Virus genome (UHGV): UHGV-0096789
DNA length: 19,581 bases
Source of the DNA: a virus
Direction: 5' to 3' (one strand)
Each line of letters opens with the position of its first letter. The stretch's first letter is position 1. The position numbers were made by a program, and so were the translations under genes. This document shows positions 5,096 through 19,531 of this stretch, one piece after another. The notes beneath the pieces are model-generated. The model saw only the letters and a list, made by a program, of their open reading frames with translations, was not told the origin of the DNA and did no database searches.

Positions 5096-5171
5096 GCGTT
5101 GCGACAAAGTGCGGTGTGAATACAGGCGGGACGTGCGCGTGTAGCCTGTATGGCAGGAGGTGACAGACGGC

Positions 5172-6914
5172 ATGATTCAGGACGCATTCATCAGGCTGCG
5201 GGCAAAACAGCTTTACTGGCAGGGGTACCCGCCCGCTGAAATATCGCGGCTGATGGGTATCAGTCAGAACACGATTTATTCGTGGAAAAAACGCGACGGA
5301 TGGGATGAGACGCCGCCCGTGGAGCGGGTCACGCAGTCGATTGATGCGCGGCTGGTTCAGCTGACCTCAAAAGCTGAAAAGAGCGGTGGTGATTTTAAGG
5401 AAATCGACCTGCTTACGCGCCAGCTCGCAAAACTGAATGACAGCAAGGGCGGCGCGGAAAAAAGCCCGCGAAAACGAAAGCTGAAAAACCATTTTTCCGA
5501 ATCGCAGGTTGCCGCACTACGTGAACACATCACCGCTCAGCTGGCAGAGCATCAGCGACGCTGGTATGAGGCGCTGGACGTCTGCCGCCGTGCCGGTGTT
5601 GATATTCGCATCATTGTGAAATCCCGACAGATAGGTGCGACCTGGTATTTTGCGCAGGAGGCACTGCTGCGTGCGCTGGATGAGAGCGTGAAATATCCGT
5701 ACCAGCGAAACCAGATTTTTTTGTCAGCCTCACGCCGTCAGGCCTTTCAGTTTAAAAGCGTGATTCAGAAGGCGGCACAGGCTGTGGACGTCGAGCTGAA
5801 AGGCGGTGACAAAATAGTGCTTTCTAACGGCGCGGAACTGCATTTTCTGGGGACATCCGCCGCGACTGCACAGTCATACACGGGCAATCTGTATTTTGAC
5901 GAATTTTTCTGGGTGTCGAACTTCATCACGCTGCGCAAGGTCGCAGGCGCGATGGCCACGCTGAATGGCCTGACGCAGACCTACTTTTCCACGCCGTCAT
6001 CGGAGATGCACGAGGCGTTTCAGTTCTGGAACGGCGCGCGGTGGAATGCAGGGCGACCACGCAGTGAGCGCCGGGAGATTGATGTGTCCCACTGCGCCCT
6101 GAAGAGTGGGGTGCTGTGTCCCGACAGTGCGTGGCGACAAATCGTGACGATTCAGGATGCTGTGGACCTGGGCTGGACGCTTACCAGTATCGACAAAATC
6201 CGCAACATGAACACGCAGGATGAGTTCCGCAATCTCTACATGTGCGAATTTGTCAGCGACGGCGAATCCGCTTTCGACCTTAATGCCCTGCTGGGCTGTG
6301 GCGTGGATGGCTATGACGAGTGGAATGACTGGAAGCCGTTTGCAGCCCGTCCGGTGGGTAATCGTCCGGTGTGGATTGGCTACGACGCTAACGGCAGCAG
6401 CGGTAACGGCGACAGCGGGGCGCTGTCTGTTGTTGTTCCGCCTGCTGTCAGGGGCGGCAAATTCCGCACGGTGGAGACGTTGCAGGTGCAGGGGCTGGAA
6501 TTTGAAGAGCAGGCCCGTGTGATTGAGCAGTTCACGCACAAATACAACGTCCAGCACATTGGTATCGACGTGACCGGCGGTAACGGTGAGGCAGTGTACC
6601 AGATAGTGCGGCGGTTCTGGCCTGCCGCCGTACCGTACACGTTCACGCTGGCATCCAAACGCGCGCTTGTGCTGAAGATGCTGCAGATTATTCGTGCGGG
6701 GCGCTGGGAGTATGACCGGGGCGAACGTGAGCTGGTCAGGGCATTCAACGCTGTGCGCAAGGCAAAAACGGCGGGCGGGGCAATAACGTATGAAACAGAC
6801 CGCACACGCGGCGTGAACCACGGCGACCTCGCGTGGGCAACCATGCTTGCCGTCATTAACGAGCCGCTGGGCGATGAGGATGGAGCAACAGGAATGCGGG
6901 TGATTGAGTTCTGA
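5172..6914 (+). CDS. P: Terminase ATPase (large) subunit (gpP-like)
   Basis: 584-aa ORF; first ATG at 5172 with GGAGG 11 nt upstream (ORF track starts at GTG 5160); divergent from O as in P2; stop overlaps the Q start (TGATG). Confidence 0.9.
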   Translation: MIQDAFIRLRAKQLYWQGYPPAEISRLMGISQNTIYSWKKRDGWDETPPVERVTQSIDARLVQLTSKAEKSGGDFKEIDLLTRQLAKLNDSKGGAEKSPRKRKLKNHFSESQVAALREHITAQLAEHQRRWYEALDVCRRAGVDIRIIVKSRQIGATWYFAQEALLRALDESVKYPYQRNQIFLSASRRQAFQFKSVIQKAAQAVDVELKGGDKIVLSNGAELHFLGTSAATAQSYTGNLYFDEFFWVSNFITLRKVAGAMATLNGLTQTYFSTPSSEMHEAFQFWNGARWNAGRPRSERREIDVSHCALKSGVLCPDSAWRQIVTIQDAVDLGWTLTSIDKIRNMNTQDEFRNLYMCEFVSDGESAFDLNALLGCGVDGYDEWNDWKPFAARPVGNRPVWIGYDANGSSGNGDSGALSVVVPPAVRGGKFRTVETLQVQGLEFEEQARVIEQFTHKYNVQHIGIDVTGGNGEAVYQIVRRFWPAAVPYTFTLASKRALVLKMLQIIRAGRWEYDRGERELVRAFNAVRKAKTAGGAITYETDRTRGVNHGDLAWATMLAVINEPLGDEDGATGMRVIEF

Positions 6915-7963
6915 TGAAAAAACAAAAACGAAAATATTCCCGCCGCGATGACGGCGTGGAGCTGGCAGAGGCACTGCGCCGCCAGCCGTCGTTAAGCGCC
7001 TTCTCGTTCGACGGCCCTTACGATGCGCACGCGCTCGACCTGCTGGATAACGCATACTGCCTGAGTAATGGCAGATACTATGAAACGCCTGTTAACTGGT
7101 ACGGACTGGCGCGGGCATCCCGGCAGACTTCGTGGCATCAGTCGGCGCTGTACTTTAAACGTAACGCACTACTGGGCTGCTTCATTCCGCACCAGCTGCT
7201 CTCCCGGCAGGCGTTCTCCGCCTTTGCGCTGGACTGGTTTGTCTTCGGGAATGCGTTTCTTGAACTGCGCACCAACAGGCTGGGCGGAAAACTGGAACTG
7301 CGGCACGCGCTGGCAAAATACGTCCGTCGTGGTGTTGAGCCGGATGTGTACTGGTTTGTGCAGACGGGCGAGCAGGACCACGAGTTTCGTCAGGGGCGCG
7401 TCTGTCATGTGCTGAACCCTGACATCAACCAGGAGATGTACGGAATGCCGGAATATCTCGGCGGCCTGCTGTCTGCCAGTCTGTCTCACTCGGCGGACCG
7501 CTTCCGCAAACTCTACTATGACAACGGTTCACACGCAGGCTGCATTATTTACGTGGGGGCGGCACAGGTTGACTGCGAAAGTATGCAGGCTCTCGAAAGA
7601 GCGTTGCAGGGCGCAAGAGGCGGTGGGGCATTCAAAAACCTGCTGCTCCAGGCACCGAACGGCGGGAAGGACGGTGTGCAAATCCTGCCGTTCCAGCAGA
7701 TCACCGCCCGGGATGAGTTCATCAACGTGAAGACAGCGTCGCGCGACGATGTGCTGGCGGCGCATCGCGTGCCGCCACAGTTAATGGGGGCGATGCCTTC
7801 CGGTACGGGTTCTTTTGGTGATGTGGAGAAGGCGGCCAGAGTGTTTGCGATCAACGAACTGATGCCGGTGATGGAGGCGATGAAGCACGTTAATGACTGG
7901 CTGGGCGAGGAGGTGATCCGCTTTAACCCTTACGCACTGCTGGATACCCCGCCCACATCCTGA
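6914..7963 (+). CDS. Q: Portal (capsid vertex) protein (gpQ-like)
   Basis: 349-aa ORF translationally coupled to P; size and position match P2 Q. Confidence 0.9.
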   Translation: MKKQKRKYSRRDDGVELAEALRRQPSLSAFSFDGPYDAHALDLLDNAYCLSNGRYYETPVNWYGLARASRQTSWHQSALYFKRNALLGCFIPHQLLSRQAFSAFALDWFVFGNAFLELRTNRLGGKLELRHALAKYVRRGVEPDVYWFVQTGEQDHEFRQGRVCHVLNPDINQEMYGMPEYLGGLLSASLSHSADRFRKLYYDNGSHAGCIIYVGAAQVDCESMQALERALQGARGGGAFKNLLLQAPNGGKDGVQILPFQQITARDEFINVKTASRDDVLAAHRVPPQLMGAMPSGTGSFGDVEKAARVFAINELMPVMEAMKHVNDWLGEEVIRFNPYALLDTPPTS

Positions 7964-7990: not shown

Positions 7991-8021
7991 GGGGCATAAA
8001 AATTTATGCCCCGACTCACCA
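7991..8021. repeat. Perfect hairpin (GGGGCATAAA/TTTATGCCCC) plus CCCCGACTCACCA core; left copy of an imperfect direct repeat
   Basis: Inverted repeat 7991-8012 between the convergent stops of Q (7963) and orf175 (8030); 13-nt core CCCCGACTCACCA at 8009-8021 recurs exactly at 9540-9552. Confidence 0.6.
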
Positions 8022-8029
8022 GCTCCGGC

Positions 8030-8557
8030 TTAACGAAGTGCAAAAGGAGTTCGTTTTTTCAGGCGGGCGGCGATGTGTCTTTTCATGCTTTTCGTCACCT
8101 CCGTCCATTTCCTGTCTTCCGGCGCAGTAATACTCACGCGAACAGAAATATCATCCTCCACGGTGACTTTCAGCGTGGTGCGAGCTTCGTTCACCGAATG
8201 CAGCTCAAACGCAACAACAATATCAACCGGCTCAATACCCGACAGTGATTCAATCCATGTACGCACGGCCACATGGAAAATACCGTCTGCTGCGACAGGG
8301 ATTTGATTAACAGAACAGGCGCGAAAGTCATCCGCGTTCCGACAGGGCAGGCCTGTTTCCACATAAGGCCGCGACTCGCCGTGTTCGTGTTCGCGGTACA
8401 GTGACGGAAGTCCCAGCCAGTCCTCATAAAACCCGACCAGCCTGCGGGCCTCATCCCGTAAGATTTCAGCGGCCCGACAACGCTTTCTTTCCACATCCCG
8501 GTTGATGCAACACAAATCCTCAAAGTGTCCCACGGATCCTCCTTCTGTTGATGTCAT
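8030..8557 (-). CDS. Hypothetical protein, 175 aa (cargo gene, no family recognised)
   Basis: ORF 8030..8692; start taken at ATG 8557..8555 (MTSTEGGSVGHFEDL...) with AGGA upstream; the 45-aa upstream extension is Cys-rich and lacks an RBS. Confidence 0.55.
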   Translation of the reverse strand: MTSTEGGSVGHFEDLCCINRDVERKRCRAAEILRDEARRLVGFYEDWLGLPSLYREHEHGESRPYVETGLPCRNADDFRACSVNQIPVAADGIFHVAVRTWIESLSGIEPVDIVVAFELHSVNEARTTLKVTVEDDISVRVSITAPEDRKWTEVTKSMKRHIAARLKKRTPFALR

Positions 8558-8953
8558 CTGTATCCTGTCGCGCTCCTCAATGGCGCGGACTGCACCACAC
8601 ACCCAGAACAAGCCACAGGGTGCGAATGAGATCGCGCAATGCACATGATACCCCAACAAAAAACATCGCGTCAGGGGCGCAATCAGCCGCATTTCTGGCG
8701 ATTTCTGAGGATGCTTTCAGCCCCCAAATTGCGGGCTGTTCCCCCGGCACCTGCGCGCAACAAAAACGCGTTTTTTTGTGCACGCACGGATCCTTTACGG
8801 ATCCAGCCGCCACGCGGGCCGGAAGGGTAAAAAGTCGTTCAAAAAAATTGTGCAAATTTGTGCACTATCGTGCAGTGTGCATCGTGCTGTTTTCTGCGCA
8901 AAAAACGGATGGTAAATTTGTTCGTAGCAGGGAAATTTTAATGAGCGCAAGAC
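8558..8953. promoter_or_regulatory. Repeat-rich 396-bp divergent control region between orf175 and the membrane-protein gene
   Basis: Hairpin CAGCCC-N9-GGGCTG (8718-8738); palindrome AAAAACGCGTTTTT (8762-8775); direct repeat ACGGATCC x2 (8786-8793, 8797-8804); five GTGC(A) repeats at 7-10-bp spacing (8850-8887) including inverted half-sites GTGCA-N6-TGCAC. Confidence 0.45.
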
Positions 8954-9484
8954 ATGAAGAAAGATTCATATCCTTATTTGATTTGCATGACTGTTTCAGT
9001 GCTAGGGATTATTTTCCTCTTTTACTGGTGGAGGGCAGATATCTACAGGATTACATATCTTAATTCGCGTATATCCAATTATTACATCTTGTGTAGTATG
9101 GGTATGTCCTTTTTCTTCTCCTTGTTTCTGGTGAAGAGGGGGGGAGTGAAGCAAAGTGGCTGGAAAGGACTGTCGGCATACCTGAAGGTTTATGCTGGCT
9201 CTTGCATTCTTACAGGGATATTCCTGATTATCCCTCTTATGATGGTGACTTATTTTTTACCAGGAGTAACATCATCATATGTTGCACCGTATGAGTATAC
9301 ATCTGGTAGTTCAAGAAGCTGTTCCGGAGCGTTTGTTGATGATCCCGAACTGCATAAAAATATTCTTATTTGCTATCCGTATGGTAACTATGAATATGAC
9401 AATATTATCTATGTTGAAAAGAAAACTAATGCATTGGGCGTTGTTGTGACGTATGCACAGACTGCACGAGACGATGCTGAATAA
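8954..9484 (+). CDS. Small integral membrane protein (3 predicted TM helices plus ~70-aa soluble C-terminal domain), AT-rich cargo gene
   Basis: 176-aa ORF; hydrophobic segments YLICMTVSVLGIIFLFYWW, YYILCSMGMSFFFSLFLV, VYAGSCILTGIFLIIPLMMVTYFL; visibly much lower GC than flanking phage genes; only ORF on the plus strand in the cargo region. Confidence 0.65.
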   Translation: MKKDSYPYLICMTVSVLGIIFLFYWWRADIYRITYLNSRISNYYILCSMGMSFFFSLFLVKRGGVKQSGWKGLSAYLKVYAGSCILTGIFLIIPLMMVTYFLPGVTSSYVAPYEYTSGSSRSCSGAFVDDPELHKNILICYPYGNYEYDNIIYVEKKTNALGVVVTYAQTARDDAE

Positions 9485-9521
9485 GATACTACAGAGATAG
9501 TCCACTTTTTTGTTTATTTGT

Positions 9522-9552
9522 CGGGATAAAAACAAATTACCCCGACTCACCA
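9522..9552. repeat. Right copy of the imperfect ~30-bp direct repeat (CGGGATAAAAACAAATTACCCCGACTCACCA)
   Basis: Shares the exact 13-nt core CCCCGACTCACCA (9540-9552) and an A-rich upstream part with 7991-8021; lies between the convergent ends of the membrane-protein gene and orf127. Confidence 0.55.
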
Positions 9553-9574
9553 TGTATTAATCTTCCGCTTTAAG

Positions 9575-9958
9575 TTAGTATTTTAGTTGCGCTGTCCTGC
9601 TGTGCAGCAAAGCGGCGTGCTTTAATGCGTCCTGTGCTTTCTGGAATTTAAGTGCATAGTCTGTGGCGATTTTTTCCAGTTCAGCGATTCGGTTGTCTTT
9701 GGTTTCCAGCCAATCAAGTAGCGCCAATACTTCAGGATCCCCGACATCCAACACTGTTACGCGTGATTTTTCATAATGTTCGTCGGCAAGAGTTCGGCCA
9801 ATTTTGAAATCTCCATCATCACCATAACCGGAGCAGGCATAAACAACCTGTGCTCCAGATATTCGCTGAATTGACATTTCCTCGCCGCAAATAGGGCATT
9901 TCGGTACTGGCACAGGTGAATAACGTTCACGTAATGCCTGATAGTTGATCTCGCTCAT
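9575..9958 (-). CDS. Hypothetical protein, 127 aa, N-terminal Cys cluster (CPICG...ACSG, zinc-ribbon-like) and helical C-terminus
   Basis: ORF with AAGGAGAA RBS before ATG 9958; co-oriented directly downstream of parR; moderate GC. Confidence 0.6.
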   Translation of the reverse strand: MSEINYQALRERYSPVPVPKCPICGEEMSIQRISGAQVVYACSGYGDDGDFKIGRTLADEHYEKSRVTVLDVGDPEVLALLDWLETKDNRIAELEKIATDYALKFQKAQDALKHAALLHSRTAQLKY

Positions 9959-10021: not shown

Positions 10022-10333
10022 TTATTCAGGAAATAACGCCCGGATATTTCCGGCCATCTGACTGGTTATCTGTGCGGTTGATACTGGCTGTGATGCGGGG
10101 CGTTCTGTCCTGGTTTGTGTCACTGATAACGCTTCATCATCAGCCCATGCAGCTAGTCGGTAAGCCTCTGCCGGATTCATTTTCAGAAGTGCCAGCCCGG
10201 CCAGAAAAGCCACGCGTTGGCCGCTTTTGCGGGCTTCTGGTGTAAGACTGTCCAGCCAGGCACACGCTTCGCTTTCGTTCTTGACTGCGGCTGGCTTCAG
10301 ATAGAAACTTATCCGCTTGGTTGATGTTGTCAT
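10022..10333 (-). CDS. parR: ParR-like partition adaptor / DNA-binding protein
   Basis: 103-aa ORF 4 nt downstream of parM; resembles remembered plasmid R1 ParR (ISFYLKPA vs IAFKLNPD; LDSLTPEARKSGQRVAFLAGLAL vs LDSIPQGERSRLNRAALTAGLAL; C-terminal IRALFPE vs LRSLFPKE). Confidence 0.7.
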   Translation of the reverse strand: MTTSTKRISFYLKPAAVKNESEACAWLDSLTPEARKSGQRVAFLAGLALLKMNPAEAYRLAAWADDEALSVTQTRTERPASQPVSTAQITSQMAGNIRALFPE

Positions 10334-10337
10334 TGGC

Positions 10338-11297
10338 TCACTCCCTGTTCATGTCATGGAGTCCATTAACCAGGGCAAACTGTGGCTCCGGTGTTGTGTG
10401 AATGTTTGCGTTGAGGCCGTAAGCGTCATGTACCGCCGGAGCCACAATCTCCGCCCCACCACCAACAACCATCACCCGACCGTACCCCGAAAAACCCGCC
10501 AGTGCGCGGATCACGCGTTGTTTCAGTGTTTCTTCCTTTTCACGAATAACCGCCATCAGGCTGGCGTAATGCGCGTCATTGTGGATGTGCTGGCGCAGCC
10601 AGGCTTCATCGTGGCGATGTTCGATAATGGTACTGGCGATGTGGTGGCTGGTACGCATACCGTTGGTGGCCATCACCGACAGCACGGCATCGGTCATCAG
10701 TGAAACGCCTACGTGTGGATCGCAAAATACCTGGCTGATACCTGCCAGTTGCCCCTGAACCTTTGCCACATCCAGCGTGGTACCGCCCAAATCCACAATC
10801 AGCAGGGATTCAAACGGACTCATGTCAGCCAGTGCCTTAAAGCCTGCCGGAATGGATTCAGGCATAACCCGCACGTTACGGATAGTGAATGCCTCACCGT
10901 TCTGGTACTCCACCGGGCGCATGACGTTCGCTTTTTTGCGGTTGATGTTGGTCATATCCGGCTGTGCGTTTGTGTCGAAATACTCGCTCAGTGGCAGGGT
11001 GACAACCACATCCACTTCCTGTGGCGTAATACCTGATTTGACCAGCGCATGATGAATGGCAATGACATTCACATCGCTGTACTGGTATTGCGTGTCGGTC
11101 GTCCGGACAAAGCGATCGCTGACCGGATCAAAACCATAGCGCACGCCATCAAGCATGTAGTTCGCGGGCTGCGTGCCACCGAACGGCGCAGACCATTCCG
11201 ACTTGAAGCTGTTCGGGCTGATGGCGTTGCGGCGTTCGCCGTTCTCAGTCCATGCCAGCTTGATGTTGGTGGAGCCGTCGTCGATACAAATTTTCAT
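10338..11297 (-). CDS. parM: ParM/StbA-family actin-like ATPase
   Basis: 319-aa ORF with actin-fold signatures shared with R1 ParM: MKICIDDGSTNIKLAW, ISPNSFK, QYSDVNVIAIHHAL, RKKAN, FTIRNVRVMPESIPAG, LLIVDLGGTTLD, GVSLMT, FSGYGRVMVVGGGAE, LVNG; AAGGAAAAG RBS. Confidence 0.9.
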   Translation of the reverse strand: MKICIDDGSTNIKLAWTENGERRNAISPNSFKSEWSAPFGGTQPANYMLDGVRYGFDPVSDRFVRTTDTQYQYSDVNVIAIHHALVKSGITPQEVDVVVTLPLSEYFDTNAQPDMTNINRKKANVMRPVEYQNGEAFTIRNVRVMPESIPAGFKALADMSPFESLLIVDLGGTTLDVAKVQGQLAGISQVFCDPHVGVSLMTDAVLSVMATNGMRTSHHIASTIIEHRHDEAWLRQHIHNDAHYASLMAVIREKEETLKQRVIRALAGFSGYGRVMVVGGGAEIVAPAVHDAYGLNANIHTTPEPQFALVNGLHDMNRE

Positions 11298-11328
11298 GTC
11301 GCTTTTCCTTATGTTGATTAATTAATCG

Positions 11329-11440
11329 TTTACGGGATTCTGAAATCCCGCTTTTGCCTGTTTTGTGCGCGCTTCATATATCGCGGCGCGTTTTTTGCTC
11401 ATTTACGGGATTTGTGAATCCCGTTTCTGTCTGTTTTTTG
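11329..11440. repeat. Two ~40-bp direct repeats, each a hairpin core (ACGGGATT-N4/5-AATCCCG) plus T-rich tail, spanning the A 3' end and the A-parM spacer
   Basis: R1 TTTACGGGATTCTGAAATCCCGCTTTTGCCTGTTTTGTG (11329-11367) and R2 TTTACGGGATTTGTGAATCCCGTTTCTGTCTGTTTTTTG (11402-11440); R2 lies inside the A reading frame, R1 between the A stop and parM start. Confidence 0.6.
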
Positions 11441-14214
11441 TTTCCACTGGTCAGGCCACCCCGCAGCAGGTCTGCTTTGCGGCGGGCGCGTTCAGTGGTT
11501 TCACTGATTCTCTGTGCGTGCTCTGCGTCGCGGATGGCGCGCAGCATGTCAGAAAGCACGGTAACGGGTGTTTTCATGGTGTTCTGGTCTTGCTGAAGTG
11601 TGGATGCCAGGCGTGCGGCGGCTTCAGGGTCTGATGCCCCCAGCTGTTCCAGATAGCTGGCGACCGGGTTATGGCGGATCTCCGTGCTGCTTACGCCGTG
11701 ATTACGGCTCAGGCGTTGCCAGAGTTGCGTGATTAGGCCGTCCGGGCGGGTATCCGGTTTGCGTACAATTTCAAATCCCTGCGGTGCAATGATGCTGCCG
11801 TCAACGTACAGACTGCCGCCCCGTAACAGGTGCTGCATCTGCTGTTCACCGATATGCAGGCCGAGAGATTCAGCAGACTCCCGCCATTCTTTAGCGAGTA
11901 ACTCGTGGTTATCAGGCAAAGGTCGCGGCTGTTTGCGGCTCTGTGTCCAGTTCTGCATTTCATCGCTGCTGTTTTTTGCCTGTTTGTCACGCAGCGAACG
12001 CATCAGCGCCCGGCGTTCGTGCCGTTTCAGTGAGCGCATCCATTCATTCACTTCAATGCCGTCAGGAATCTGCGGCCACGGTGCTGGCCGTTCTTCCGGC
12101 TGTTCTGTCCCGCTGTTGTCTGTTTCCTGTACACGGGGACAGTTATTGCCACGAGTCCAAGGGGCGGCAGGGCCGCCCTGAAGGTCAAAACCATTTTCGC
12201 GGGAGCTGTCTTCCGCTTCCGGTTTACGTCTTACCAGCTTCCAGTTATCCGGGTGTGTGCACACACGGGAGGATTCCCCGATGAGTGGTGACCAGATCCC
12301 GTAAATCTGTACACTCTGTTCGCCGTAATCGTTCAGCTCATCTGCGAGGTCGTAGGCGGTGCGAATCAGGTAGTCTTTACGTGGAACAAGTACGCCGCCC
12401 TGTTTCTCAATGTAGGTGGCAAAACATCCGGCATCAGCGGCAGCAAGAACCGCATCCATTGCGTCATCCTTCAGCTGTTGTGGGCCTTCCGGGTTGCGTG
12501 CCATCTGGCTGGCAAGGCGGCGCAGTTCACGCCACACCTGACGGGAGGGGATACCAAAGAACTGGAACTGGCGGACCCGGTGAAGGCGCGCCCAGCCGAT
12601 GGCGCGCTCCACGCTCTCGGCCATTGATTTTCCGGTTTCGTGGTCAACGCGTGGCTTGCCCGTTTTCGGGTCGATACCATCCACGGCGCGGCTGTCCAGG
12701 TTCTTTCCGATGTAGGTGGCGATGTAGCTGGTTGGCGTGCCTTTTGAGCCGTCGACGTACTCCGCTTTAAAACGCGGAGTGATGTCATCGCCCAGCTCGT
12801 GGCGGTCTTCCTGAATGGCAATATCGCAGACGTGGGACACGATGGTTTCAATCTCGTCCGGATGTGCAAAGACCATCATATGCCAGTGCACAGTGCCGTC
12901 ATGGTGAGGCTCCACCGTGCGGATGCCATACCAGCGAAGACCGTCGCGGTTCAGTTTTTTGCGGACCGCCGCAAAAAACGTGTTAACCAGGTAATCGCTG
13001 GAGTCGCGCATGGTGGCCCCGTTCCATTTGGGATTCGGATGACCGTTCTCCGTTGTTGCGTGGTATTTTGACGGGCAGGTGACAGTCAGAAACACCGCTC
13101 TGTCGCCACGGGCTTCGGCCAGAAGTTCCAGCCCCTTCATGGTGGCCATCATTTCTGCCTTACGGTGAACCGGGTTACTTACTCCCGCGTAATAAACCGT
13201 CTCGAGATCAATCGTGAACCCGTCTTCATTTTCCAGCATGAAACTTTTCAGGAAATCGCGAGTTTTCTCGCGCTGTGCGCGAAACTCGCTTAACGCGTCC
13301 TGGCTCAGATAGGGTGATGTTTTTCTGGAAACCAGACAGGCGGCGCGGAGTTGTTCTTCTCTCCACTCGCAACGTAACAGCCACAGTTTGCGTTTCCACC
13401 ATTCCGCACAGGTCAGGCGAAGGATTGCGCCTGGCAGCAGCTCCGTGTCCGGTTCGTTCCTCCGATCTCTATCTGTTGTCAGTGCGTCATAATGTGGAGG
13501 CATGGCGTGCAGGTGTAACGCCATGCGGGCCAGCATCTGATACGCCTTCAGCGTTACATCCATGGTCAGCTCGCCATCAGTCGCGCCAAAGCCATCGCAG
13601 AGTTTTTCGAAGGTGCTGCTGAACATCGCCGCCGTCATGGTGGCCAGCGTCTGTATCTGGTGCTTGTTAAGCTGCGGCAGGTACAGCAAATCATCCAGGC
13701 GTTCGCGTCCGGCAAGGGCGCGATAACCCCGTGTCAGCCAGCGGCTGTCGGTGCGGTCCAGACGTTCGAATATTTTGCGCAGGGTTCCGCGCGCGTAGCC
13801 CTCTGCTGGTCGACTCTTTTTGCCTTTCTGGCGGTCAGATTCCTGCTTCTTACGTAAAAAAGAGAGGCGGCGGCTCAGTGGTTCACGCAGATAAACAGGT
13901 AGTGCCTTTAGTGTGACAAATGCACGGGCCACCGGGTCTTGTTCTGTTGCCCGGCGCTTACTGATGATGCTCTGTGCCAGCTTTTCACGCTGTCCGGCTT
14001 CCTCAAGGGATGCCATGAGTTTTTTACCCATGGCGGATTGTGCGAAAAAGGCTTCCTCCTTCGCTTCCTGTTCTTCCCGTGCCTTTTTGTCCGCCTCAAG
14101 GTAGTAACGGATGGCGCGTTGCAGGTCGGTTTCAGTTTCCTGACTGCGCTCCGTAAATCTGGCCGGATCAATGGCTGGCCGTGGTTCATTCCAGCTCCAT
14201 GCAAACTCACTCAT
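11374..14214 (-). CDS. A: Replication initiation endonuclease (gpA-like rolling-circle initiator), with a long C-terminal extension
   Basis: ORF 11374..14241 (track starts at GTG); first ATG at 14214 overlaps the upstream gene stop (ATGA); conserved core FLTVTCPSKYH...YGIRTVEPHHDGTVHWHMMVF matches remembered P2 A; ~946 aa versus ~760 aa for P2 A. Confidence 0.85.
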   Translation of the reverse strand: MSEFAWSWNEPRPAIDPARFTERSQETETDLQRAIRYYLEADKKAREEQEAKEEAFFAQSAMGKKLMASLEEAGQREKLAQSIISKRRATEQDPVARAFVTLKALPVYLREPLSRRLSFLRKKQESDRQKGKKSRPAEGYARGTLRKIFERLDRTDSRWLTRGYRALAGRERLDDLLYLPQLNKHQIQTLATMTAAMFSSTFEKLCDGFGATDGELTMDVTLKAYQMLARMALHLHAMPPHYDALTTDRDRRNEPDTELLPGAILRLTCAEWWKRKLWLLRCEWREEQLRAACLVSRKTSPYLSQDALSEFRAQREKTRDFLKSFMLENEDGFTIDLETVYYAGVSNPVHRKAEMMATMKGLELLAEARGDRAVFLTVTCPSKYHATTENGHPNPKWNGATMRDSSDYLVNTFFAAVRKKLNRDGLRWYGIRTVEPHHDGTVHWHMMVFAHPDEIETIVSHVCDIAIQEDRHELGDDITPRFKAEYVDGSKGTPTSYIATYIGKNLDSRAVDGIDPKTGKPRVDHETGKSMAESVERAIGWARLHRVRQFQFFGIPSRQVWRELRRLASQMARNPEGPQQLKDDAMDAVLAAADAGCFATYIEKQGGVLVPRKDYLIRTAYDLADELNDYGEQSVQIYGIWSPLIGESSRVCTHPDNWKLVRRKPEAEDSSRENGFDLQGGPAAPWTRGNNCPRVQETDNSGTEQPEERPAPWPQIPDGIEVNEWMRSLKRHERRALMRSLRDKQAKNSSDEMQNWTQSRKQPRPLPDNHELLAKEWRESAESLGLHIGEQQMQHLLRGGSLYVDGSIIAPQGFEIVRKPDTRPDGLITQLWQRLSRNHGVSSTEIRHNPVASYLEQLGASDPEAAARLASTLQQDQNTMKTPVTVLSDMLRAIRDAEHAQRISETTERARRKADLLRGGLTSGNKKQTETGFTNPVNEQKTRRDI

Positions 14215-14600
14215 GGCTGGTATCCCGTCACGTGCTGCCACTCCTGCGAGAAGAGGGCGGAAAGGCGGTTAAATTCAGCGGTGTATTCACTCAGCGAGGC
14301 ACACCCGCCAGCAGTGTGATGCGCCAGCATTGCCGCAAATACGGAGGCCGGGGAGTCGTAATACGCCAGCAGTGATTCGCCGTGTGGTGTCAGGCAGTGC
14401 AACGCCAGCCCGTGTGGTGTGAAGTCCACGCGGTAGCAGTCGTCTACTGTGAAATAAAGGGTGTCCGCATTCTCCGGTTTTGTGGTGCGTGTTCTGTTGT
14501 CACGACCACGGATGTAGAGATCAAATAATCCCTGAAGAACGGGAGCCAGACGGGTGTCCTGTGTGCGCACCCATCTTGTGAAGTCATGAGCGTCAATCAT
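14211..14600 (-). CDS. Hypothetical early protein, 129 aa, translationally coupled to A
   Basis: ORF with stop overlapping the A start; AAAGAGAA upstream of ATG 14600; no family recognised. Confidence 0.5.
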   Translation of the reverse strand: MIDAHDFTRWVRTQDTRLAPVLQGLFDLYIRGRDNRTRTTKPENADTLYFTVDDCYRVDFTPHGLALHCLTPHGESLLAYYDSPASVFAAMLAHHTAGGCASLSEYTAEFNRLSALFSQEWQHVTGYQP

Positions 14601-14903: not shown

Positions 14904-15078
14904 GGTGTGGCCTCTTGTGTAGTAAGTTGTGAAAACTCACCATCCAGAGCTGCGAAACTGTGGGTGGCGAGACGTACGAGGTTCGCAGTACCGGCTACAC
15001 AAGAACCCGGCCCGACCGAAGTCGGCCCCGTACGCCCCGCCATAATTCTGGCGCGAAAAAAACGTGGCAATACAGTAC

Positions 15079-15108
15079 GCACAAAAAAACCGCTGGCGCG
15101 GTTGTGCG
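15079..15108 (-). terminator. Minus-strand intrinsic-terminator-like element downstream of orf183
   Basis: On the minus strand: stem CCGC-GCCA-GCGG followed by TTTTTTT, nested in outer inverted repeat CGCACAA/TTGTGCG; ~120 nt after the orf183 stop. Confidence 0.4.
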
Positions 15109-15223
15109 CTTGTGTAGTTAGCAGGCTGCGAAACCCGGCACCCGTTTTATGAGGTGCAGCGGAAATGTAACCTGACTGATTGCGGCATGGCAAGCGGTTT
15201 TTTTGTGTGTACATAGTGGTTAC

Positions 15224-18490: not shown

Positions 18491-18535
18491 CCCAGAGCTG
18501 TGATCAAGATGATGTTTTCATTGGAGGGCTTCCTT

Positions 18536-19531
18536 ATGTCGATTAAGAAGCTCGCTAATGGCAAATTTTGTGTGGACGTGCGGCCTGCTGGATCGGAAGG
18601 AAAGAGATTCAGACGGCGATTTGATACTCGTGGTGAGGCTGTTTTGTATGAGCGTCATGTATTGCAGCATTACCACGACAAAGACTGGGTTGATAAGCCA
18701 ACAGAACGGCGCTCGCTGAGGGAGTTGCTGGATTGTTGGTGGCTATACCACGGGAAAAATCATCCTTATGGTGCGATGGAGCGAGTGCGTATTTCTGCGG
18801 TCATTAGTGATCTTGAAAGTATTAATGTTACACGCAGTGACCAACTTACTCGTAAGAACATAATTAATTATCGCTTATTGCTGCTTAACCGCGGAATAAA
18901 ACAATCCACGGTTAATCGTTATTGTGCAATGATGAGTGGTTTCTTCACAAAACTAATTGACGCAGAGGAATATTCTGGGGCTAATCCGTTTCATGATATA
19001 AAAAAACTTAATATCAAACAGCCTGAAATGGCTTATTTGTATCATGAAGATATTCCACGATTACTGGAGTTGTTATCTGGTGATGAATTAAAAGCCGTCT
19101 TGTTGTGTCTGGCAACAGGTGGAAGATGGAGTGAGGTTGCAAATATCAAGGGGGAGCATGTTATTAGCGGCAAAGTCATTTTTATGGAAACCAAAAATGG
19201 GAAGCGTCGCGTTATACCTATATCGTCAGAACTGGAGTGCATGATTAAAACAAAGGCCACTGGTCGTTTAATTTATCCAAGTTATGCAGCTGTCAGAGCT
19301 GCTATCAGAAAGGTGAGGCCCGATCTTCCTGAAGGGCAGTCGATACATGTTTTACGGCATACCTTTGCCACTCACTTCATGATTAATGGTGGGAATATCA
19401 TCACTTTGCAGAGAATACTTGGACATAGCACTATTCAGCAGACGATGACTTATGCCCATTTTGCACCGGATTATCTACAGGATGCTGTGCGCTTTAATCC
19501 TGTGGCTGAGTTGTCCAGATATTGCCCATAA
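18536..19531 (+). CDS. int: Tyrosine integrase (P2 Int-like)
   Basis: ORF 18500..19531; start taken at ATG 18536 (MSIKKLANGKFCVDVRPAGSEGKRFRRRF...) with GGAGGG 6 nt upstream; C-terminal catalytic region HVLRHTFATHFMINGGNIITLQRILGHSTIQQTMTYAHFAPDYLQDAV nearly identical in pattern to P2 Int. Confidence 0.9.
   Translation: MSIKKLANGKFCVDVRPAGSEGKRFRRRFDTRGEAVLYERHVLQHYHDKDWVDKPTERRSLRELLDCWWLYHGKNHPYGAMERVRISAVISDLESINVTRSDQLTRKNIINYRLLLLNRGIKQSTVNRYCAMMSGFFTKLIDAEEYSGANPFHDIKKLNIKQPEMAYLYHEDIPRLLELLSGDELKAVLLCLATGGRWSEVANIKGEHVISGKVIFMETKNGKRRVIPISSELECMIKTKATGRLIYPSYAAVRAAIRKVRPDLPEGQSIHVLRHTFATHFMINGGNIITLQRILGHSTIQQTMTYAHFAPDYLQDAVRFNPVAELSRYCP

Follow-up and report, generated by a model that had tools for sequence, protein, structure and literature searches.

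A three-helix membrane protein gene at the cos-proximal end of the gpA–gpQ hotspot of a P88-like prophage: an uncharacterised moron and candidate superinfection exclusion gene

The window analysed in this study, a stretch of 19,581 nucleotides of the virus genome UHGV-0096789, is a P88-like (Xuanwuvirus, P2-like, Peduoviridae) prophage. The gene at 8954..9484 on its plus strand (176 aa plus stop) encodes a predicted inner-membrane protein with three transmembrane (TM) helices and a C-terminal β-barrel. It is an uncharacterised, ordinary-looking moron of a small family which is very common in E. coli prophages and whose kin are already present in a survey of the hotspot concerned. The explanation that we favour, with a probability of roughly 0.4, is that the product is a superinfection exclusion protein which is expressed in the lysogen and acts at the level of the envelope. 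A role in phage exclusion, one of the two suggested by the earlier note (the other being abortive infection), is a reasonable leading hypothesis, since this is an atypical, single three-TM accessory gene in an anti-phage slot and it has the place and orientation of old-tin in P2. Judging from the sequence, a promoter-like element, the gene and a hairpin may constitute a self-contained moron cassette at the cos-proximal end of the gpA–gpQ hotspot.

The frame 8954-9484(+) is a genuine coding gene under purifying selection (dN/dS about 0.1). Its 176 codons are open and end with TAA. No other start codon lies between the preceding stop and 8954, so that a longer N-terminus is impossible in the window allele. 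With this composition, 176 codons without a stop would arise by chance with a probability of about 7e-6, and an open frame of equal length appeared in one of 2000 shuffles of the region 8693-9574. The comparison with the allele of phage 434 gave a dN/dS of 0.10 (dS 1.2) and that with a Salmonella allele 0.15 (dS 1.6), with no indel in 528 nt in either case. The C-terminal domain is under tighter constraint than the rest of the protein (dN/dS 0.07 and 0.12, respectively).

The gene was also described as strikingly AT-rich against a GC-rich phage backbone, and the quantitative analysis clearly confirmed that it is compositionally atypical. Its GC content is 0.390 (GC3 0.395), compared with 0.57-0.60 (GC3 0.67-0.74) for the terminase, portal, capsid and scaffold genes and with a window-wide value of 0.544. 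Equally AT-rich stretches make up only 0.7% of the 531-nt segments, and the GC minimum of the whole window falls at the 8954-9484 locus. The contrast between the gene (0.39) and its neighbours (0.46-0.60) was repeated in five other enterobacterial loci. The conclusion drawn from this composition, a recent horizontal acquisition, can be retained as regards atypical composition and mobility but not as regards recency. All enterobacterial alleles are AT-rich (39-43% GC), despite a dS above 1 between alleles. The synonymous sites between them are saturated or nearly saturated, and the low GC content is therefore a long-standing property of a mobile gene.

The gene order of the region follows from phage records and from a locus of E. 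coli strain 135 with 99.8% identity. The gene lies between the portal gene gpQ (6914-7963, +), which is preceded by the terminase gene (5160-6914, +), and a block at 10022-14241 which comprises the genes of ParR (10022-10333, −), ParM (10338-11297, −) and the replication endonuclease gpA (11374-14241, −). This position, beside the probable cos, is the gpA–gpQ hotspot, the cos-proximal anti-phage hotspot of P2-like phages which was defined by Rousset et al. 2022 (PMC9122126) and re-confirmed in PMC13586616. It is indeed the sole plus-strand gene of the cargo region, as had been noticed from the sequence; this holds between 7964 and 9958, the two flanking ORFs, 8030-8692 and 9575-9958 (the latter a truncated ead/Ea22-like ORF), being on the minus strand. 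On the gpA side of the hotspot, this phage has no other intact gene outside its backbone. In P88, phiSM and P2 the gene is absent and other genes fill the slot. A functional pairing with the ORF 8030-8692(−) was considered and rejected because this ORF, found at this place in the window alone, is missing from every other gene-bearing locus. Position in the hotspot alone is a weak predictor of defence, since only three of eight additional cloned P2-hotspot systems (old-tin excluded) were protective (Rousset et al. 2022, PMC9122126).

The probable cos (cohesive-end) region was located at 8805..8830, because the two termini of the linear phage record LR595891 (P88_4B11) meet at 8829|8830. These termini read ...CCACGCGGGCTGGAAGGGCA | AAAATTCGTTCAAAAAAATTGTGC..., and the corresponding window sequence is ...CCACGCGGGCCGGAAGGGTA|AAAAGTCGTTCAAAAAAATTGTGC; the record ends are presumably the true cos ends. 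The cos sequence of P2, GGCGAGGCGGGGAAAGCAC, was not found in the window even when three mismatches were allowed. The ATG lies about 125 bp inside the probable cos end 8829/8830 and the gene reads inward, which would make it the first gene inward from a genome end. The segment 8720-8877 is backbone and common to P88, which lacks the gene. A phased GTGCA array at 8847..8881 (+), with starts at 8850, 8860 and 8870 (an exact 10-nt period) and a further copy at 8877, is kept in six gene-bearing loci, in the gene-less P88 and partly in phage 434. The array may flank cos or bind terminase, serve as an operator, or combine these roles.

The promoter-like element at 8890..8918 (+) consists of a −35-like hexamer TTTTCT, a 17-nt spacer and an extended −10 element TGgTAAATT; it would start a transcript near 8924-8926. 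Both TTTTCT-17 nt-TGnTAAATT and the GTGCA array formed invariant blocks when six diverged loci were aligned. No plus-strand site was reported by the consensus promoter scan; according to our own count the −35-like hexamer matches TTGACA in three of six positions, the threshold being four. About 135 nt upstream of the gene (8817-8953) move together with it. The 137 upstream nt can be aligned without gaps to phage 434 with 75% identity, and third codon positions are only 58.5% identical. Downstream of the stop codon, the hairpin GTCGGG...CCCGAC (9520..9546, +), also present in phage 434, has a folding z-score of −1.3 and was not reported as a terminator-like site by the scan; lacking a U-tract, it is no canonical intrinsic terminator. 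The gene had been said to be driven from a long repeat-rich control region. The GTGCA repeats and the approximately 135 nt with the promoter-like element fit this description, but part of the 261-nt upstream region is backbone and probable cos.

The location next to cos and the GTGCA array which the gene has in common with the backbone may suggest a role in the cycle of the phage itself, such as lysis timing, DNA entry or exit or regulation linked to packaging, or else a selfish passenger of no benefit to the lysogen. The three TM helices are also reminiscent of class I holins, which have three such helices. We consider this the least probable of the alternatives discussed here. The gene is absent from P88 and P2 and hence not essential, and its position in lambdoid phages is unrelated. 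It lies outside the lysis cassette: the lysis genes (lysozyme and LysC) of a near-identical prophage are about 7 kb away, among tail and head genes, and the window gene does not share the place with endolysin and spanins by which a holin would be recognised. Moreover, the dN/dS of about 0.1 and the retention in degraded prophages argue for a benefit which is independent of phage propagation.

Three hydrophobic helices within the first approximately 100 residues, as claimed by the earlier note, were found in the AlphaFold model (15-sequence alignment, pLDDT 79.5), which contains helices at residues 5-33, 38-61 and 71-101, followed by five strands between residues 105 and 171. A homologue was similarly listed with "3 TM" by Phobius (Rousset et al. 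2022). Helix 1 (8966..9052, +) includes TM1 at about residues 8-26 with a conserved WW at its end. Helix 2 (9065..9136, +) corresponds to TM2 and is followed by a K/R-rich loop (residues 60-78) which is predicted to be cytoplasmic, and helix 3 (9164..9256, +) corresponds to TM3 and ends with a conserved YFLPG junction. Kyte-Doolittle values above 1.6 were obtained with 19-residue windows for residues 5-28 and 75-107, and the hydropathy of the middle segment 42-60 is about 1.5 (calculated by hand). There are no charged or pore-lining residues within the TM helices. The protein was also considered as a lipoprotein, and this reading was rejected because a lipobox is absent and C11 is not conserved.

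The small soluble, Tyr/Gly/Ser-rich C-terminal domain which had been noticed likewise proved to be real: it is a predicted small five-stranded β-barrel (9263..9466, +; residues 104-171), whose loops are rich in Ser, Gly and Tyr (Y+G+S 29% of the domain). Modelled separately, the C-terminal 76 residues gave a pLDDT of 92 and a pTM of 0.78. In the AlphaFold model a short strand (residues 34-36) of the TM1-TM2 loop lies beside the barrel sheet. In the alignment of 28 relatives, with identities down to 24%, the only invariant residues are C123, C140 and G162, all in the barrel; W26, G125, I137 and K156 are near-invariant. C123 and C140 probably form a disulfide. The mean number of K and R residues in the 28 relatives is 1.5 in the N-terminus, 1.8 in loop 1 and 4.5 in loop 2 (6.1 for the N-terminus and loop 2 together), and this bias favours the N-in/C-out orientation. 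On these grounds the barrel and loop 1 most likely face the periplasm.

The statement that the protein belongs to no recognisable family applies to Pfam, NCBIfam and PADLOC but not to PHROGs. The best Pfam match of the window protein was SCAMP (E=0.031, 14.9 bits at a cut-off of 27), NCBIfam gave no match, and none of the families of PADLOC-DB v2.0.0 matched the window protein or any of the 28 relatives. With E<=0.01, Pfam yielded only four differing, unrelated single-member matches (E 0.0015 or weaker) across the 28 relatives, and none of these was to a colicin-immunity or NfeD family. Clear homology to a housekeeping membrane protein was therefore not found in Pfam, NCBIfam or PADLOC. In contrast, residues 90-175 matched PHROG 1416, a group of unknown function, over profile positions 2-87 of 90 with E=2.6e-45. 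Since PHROG 1416 is limited to TM3 and the barrel, the annotated start of the gene is probably an internal Met in many phage genomes. The profile search of PDB sequences gave E=0.2 at best, and full-length searches with the window protein were uninformative. The proteins with a membrane anchor and a small OB-like barrel, NfeD/YuaF-type proteins and DUF1093, scored at a generic level only, and the SPFH/stomatin partner gene of the NfeD type is absent beside the window gene.

Among 5.8 billion proteins the family forms 61 clusters (90% identity), and the exhaustive profile search gave 56 representative clusters among 1.84 billion proteins. All members with a named organism come from Gammaproteobacteria (Escherichia, Shigella, Salmonella, Enterobacter, Cedecea and Pseudomonas). 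Two candidates were discarded. P0105, a repetitive giant multi-domain protein (3074 aa) with 11 weakly matching stretches and only sub-threshold Pfam matches, was regarded as spurious, and "memP" of Citrobacter phage phiSM, although it fills the corresponding slot, is a different protein, with no similarity in hhalign.

In the mechanism which we prefer, the N-terminus would lie in the cytoplasm and the product would insert into the inner membrane, where the three TM helices would anchor the small β-barrel in the periplasm. The barrel, probably disulfide-bonded, would pack against the short loop between TM1 and TM2. Expression would take place in the lysogen, as a case of lysogenic conversion at the envelope, and we infer that the protein may interfere with genome delivery by incoming phages at the periplasmic face of the inner membrane. 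The cell would not be killed; this would be superinfection exclusion like that by P22 SieA, T4 Imm and Sp, or HK97 gp15. Several observations lead to this reading: the old-tin-like slot and orientation, the recurrence across P2-like lineages and the capture by lambdoid phages together with upstream DNA, as well as purifying selection, the retention in some decaying prophages, the lack of a partner gene or cytoplasmic sensor and the precedent of the non-homologous SieA.

The same protein could act by abortive infection, in that a three-TM protein depolarises or permeabilises the inner membrane when an infection is sensed and the cell dies before progeny are made. A membrane protein in a defence hotspot is consistent with this, as the TM proteins of known systems are generally regarded as suicide effectors (Rousset et al. 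2022, PMC9122126). An AT-rich, possibly H-NS-silenced context, reportedly typical of toxic immunity genes, would be consistent with it too. However, this is a single gene with a partner sensor in none of the contexts, its sole conserved soluble domain is predicted to be periplasmic, and the TM helices are without charged or pore-lining residues. Moreover, about 18% of E. coli genomes retain the gene, with some copies in degraded prophages, and it has no antitoxin-like neighbour. We therefore regard abortive infection as improbable, only the role in the phage cycle being ranked below it. A block at entry or at the envelope fits better than a suicide effector, since the conserved soluble domain is most likely periplasmic and a cytoplasmic sensor domain is missing.

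The distribution of the family was explored by a homologue search of the kind proposed in the earlier note, which revealed a conserved context: the gpA–gpQ slot recurs in P2-like lineages and a PMT_2 gene is the neighbour in three Pseudomonas genomes. Relatives of the gene occupy the same slot in the same orientation in at least four P2-like lineages (of E. coli, Salmonella and Enterobacter, and an SSB-carrying lineage); those of Salmonella, Enterobacter and a further P2-like lineage of E. coli are 54-66% identical. An 80% identical allele is present in the lambdoid phages 434, 2B8 and mEp332, between xis and exo and antisense to the pL (leftward early) operon. This 434-type allele also occurs in ybhC-site prophages of many E. 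coli strains, including Sp3 of O157:H7 Sakai (ECs_0804), and some of these prophages are visibly degraded. A copy detectable at the DNA level was present in 999 of 5426 complete E. coli genomes (about 18%), 77 of them with the window-type allele (>=95% identity) and 918 with the 434-type. The same two allele classes were found in IMG/VR.

The family has already been catalogued. The gpA–gpQ "system 4" of Table S5B of Rousset et al. 2022 (PMC9122126) is a single hypothetical protein with "3 TM" (Phobius) from 470 loci, and it is the fourth most abundant cargo in the list for this hotspot. Its listed sequence MRTVKNYSYPYL... is the relative P0047, 54-57% identical to the window protein. WP_000711113 from Table S5A of the same study is the 176-aa window-type allele (about 98-99% DNA identity) in the same slot and orientation. 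The "system 4" sequence is not in the table of systems evaluated for defence in that study, and the literature searches, which included WP_000711113 and ECs0804, found no published functional test of the family. As far as we found, the family is thus catalogued, abundant and uncharacterised.

Solitary chromosomal copies outside phages were found in Cedecea neteri and in an enterobacterial scr-locus. No partner or sensor gene is constant across the loci; the gene is single in every examined context. The solitary copies in variable parts of chromosomes outside phages, like maintenance in decaying prophages, would suit an orphan immunity protein which protects against an envelope-acting toxin (a bacteriocin such as colicin M or a pore-forming colicin, or a T6SS/CDI effector with its target in the periplasm or inner membrane) and thus serves as a fitness factor of the lysogen. 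By analogy, an inner-membrane anchor with a small periplasmic, probably disulfide-bonded domain would resemble periplasm-facing immunity proteins such as Cmi and the colicin immunity proteins. Nevertheless, an adjacent toxin gene was present in none of the examined loci, no member matches a colicin-immunity family (Pfam, E<=0.01), and the strong bias to phage defence slots would be left unexplained. Immunity to a toxin is unlikely in our opinion, even if we would place it first among the alternatives to envelope-level exclusion.

The distant Pseudomonas relatives are chromosomal and their composition is near-native (GC 0.54-0.57, GC3 0.66-0.72). A 477-aa PMT/PMT_2 (GT-C) glycosyltransferase is encoded about 140 bp downstream of the gene, on the same strand, in P. 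poae, Pseudomonas sp. 286 and P. haemolytica. At a fourth Pseudomonas locus the protein is just 36% identical and the glycosyltransferase gene is 3.5 kb away. The upstream neighbours vary, an ECF sigma gene being found at two loci (at one of them with a FecR-like gene). The GC content and the PMT_2 neighbour hint at an ancestral envelope role which was not necessarily anti-phage, and the chromosomal relatives in Pseudomonas and some enterobacteria weaken a purely anti-phage reading.

This arrangement in three genomes of the P. fluorescens group, in DNA of host-like GC content, together with the Ser/Gly/Tyr-rich barrel loops, would suit an accessory function in envelope modification. The protein would be a partner or regulator of a host GT-C glycosyltransferase or envelope-assembly enzyme and alter the cell surface, which could secondarily affect phage adsorption or interaction with a host. 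On the other hand, each phage-borne copy stands alone, unaccompanied by a glycosyltransferase gene, the synteny of related pseudomonads may be inherited rather than functional, and the protein has no enzymatic domain. Such a function seems rather unlikely and ranks behind toxin immunity and ahead of abortive infection. The remaining probability belongs to something else.

A relative of this protein is thus among the most abundant listed cargoes of the best-studied prophage defence hotspot, yet the family has neither a known domain nor a name. A more far-reaching version of envelope-level exclusion, doubtful but conceivable, is that these proteins form a new single-protein envelope immunity family, unlike all known exclusion proteins, in which a small periplasmic, probably disulfide-bonded barrel on a three-TM anchor would block the genome entry of heterologous phages. 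The gene would shuttle between P2-like and lambdoid phages together with its promoter-like element, and it would be of chromosomal origin, from an envelope protein with a GT-C glycosyltransferase as its partner in Pseudomonas. If so, about one in five E. coli genomes, including that of O157:H7 (Sp3 ECs_0804), would carry an unrecognised phage-resistance gene. Exclusion at the envelope would affect the host range in phage therapy of E. coli, Shigella and Salmonella, and it would mean an exclusion protein of a new structural type, the target of which could be identified by means of escape mutants. If envelope modification or toxin immunity proves to be right instead, the gene would caution against reading every hotspot gene as anti-phage.

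Among known systems, old-tin of P2 shares the slot of the window gene: of the cargo on the gpA side it is the one closest to cos, it reads inward from cos, opposite to gene A, as the window gene does to gpA, and it is non-essential. The old-tin promoter lies 150-170 bp inside the cohesive end (cosR), and the ATG of the window gene 125 bp inside the probable cos. The products are dissimilar: Old, which is an ATPase/nuclease, and Tin are both soluble and cytoplasmic, whereas the product of the window gene is a membrane protein whose soluble domain is probably periplasmic.

The small inner-membrane proteins T4 Imm, T4 Sp and HK97 gp15 act at genome entry from the envelope. Their sizes and numbers of TM helices differ from those of the window protein, and homology is not expected. 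SieA of P22 is closer in architecture. It is an inner-membrane protein of 162-164 aa with three TM helices which is expressed from its own promoter in the prophage and blocks DNA injection. The likeness concerns size (162-164 and 176 aa), three predicted TM helices and the single gene, i.e. architecture only, and the localisation of the window protein is a predicted one. The hhalign comparison with P22 SieA revealed no similarity (probability 0.3%). The SieA motif FxRYPxEAxxFNK, which is predicted to be cytoplasmic, is absent from the window protein, whose conserved domain is predicted to be periplasmic, and the sieA slot is a different one, between genes 16 and 9 of P22-like phages. By its presumed function, the window gene would nevertheless belong to a known kind, the prophage-encoded single-gene membrane proteins of lysogenic conversion and superinfection exclusion.

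PGAP calls the window-type allele of the target gene (8954-9484, plus strand; at least 95% identity) a 'frameshifted' pseudogene in some genomes, as at loci L001 (10208-10783) and L011 (3708-4283, each in the coordinates of its own locus). We infer that this call likely arose from a comparison with an over-extended 200-aa version of the 434-type form. The pseudogene interpretation was rejected because the start MKK(D/Y)SYPYL is conserved in all relatives of the target protein and the 176-aa frame is intact.

The gene is followed by an Ead/Ea22-like ORF of 127 aa (9575-9958, minus strand; PF13935, E=7e-30). In near-identical prophages, PGAP labels the corresponding gene as truncated, with the C-terminus missing, and the insertion of the target-gene cassette may therefore have clipped it. 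The slot of the target gene is occupied in the Citrobacter phage phiSM by the gene for the 172-aa protein 'memP' (5385-5903 of locus L002), which consists of an N-terminal hydrophobic segment followed by an apparently soluble region and is unrelated to the target protein. Sister phages thus fill this position with differing membrane proteins. The hotspot also harbours an actin-type partition cassette of the ParM/ParR (StbA/Plasmid_stab_B) type, which adjoins gpA (10022-11297, minus strand) and is conserved throughout the Xuanwuvirus phages. This conservation suggests either a plasmid-like maintenance stage or that ParMR has been put to another use.

The chromosomal Pseudomonas relatives of the target gene (L008, 6001-8078; L028 and L029, 7001-9091; L015, 2404-7820) have a GC content resembling that of the host and are adjoined by a gene encoding a 477-aa PMT_2 (GT-C) glycosyltransferase. 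An ECF sigma factor gene is located upstream at two of the Pseudomonas loci, at one of them together with a FecR-like gene. A type I restriction-modification system and a gene for a Lon-like protease with the domains LonC/AAA_32/Lon_C are found close by at the P. poae locus.

Between the portal gene and the probable cos end lies a 220-aa ORF (8030-8692, minus strand), the true start of which is more likely M46, giving a product of about 175 aa. Its residues 56-218 matched the profile of PHROG 5091, a family of unknown function (E=6e-32), and no match was found in Pfam, NCBIfam or PADLOC. The ORF was missing from all 102 loci in which it was looked for and gave no tblastn match in the phage collection; no complete E. 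coli genome carried both this ORF and the target gene. It may represent a second, independent cargo gene across cos from the target gene.

In the early region of the P2-like prophage, matches to the C4 antisense RNA (14960-15047, minus strand; 83 bits) and the Hfq-binding RNA isrK (15083-15157, minus strand; 66.5 bits) adjoin each other, both exceeding the Rfam gathering score. The early region of the near-identical prophage of E. coli strain 135 is annotated with ash-family and derepression-protein genes; taken together, these features suggest an RNA immunity element of the P4/P1 style. A second AT-rich stretch (18600-19400, GC 0.37-0.43) overlaps the ORF 18500-19531 (plus strand) and corresponds by position to the prophage integrase end in the strain 135 locus.

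The entire cargo region is flanked by two hairpins, a terminator-like one following the portal gene (7993-8021) and another following the target gene (9523-9552), which share the exact 13-nt direct repeat CCCCGACTCACCA as their 3' arm and tail. The repeat could be a recombination microhomology or due to chance. Directly inside the probable cos end, GTGCA motifs are arrayed with an exact 10-nt period (8847-8881). The array, which is retained in P88-like phages without the target gene and partly in the lambdoid phage 434, may be a terminase/cos-flank element, an operator or both. At the corresponding position, P2 carries ATGCA repeats.
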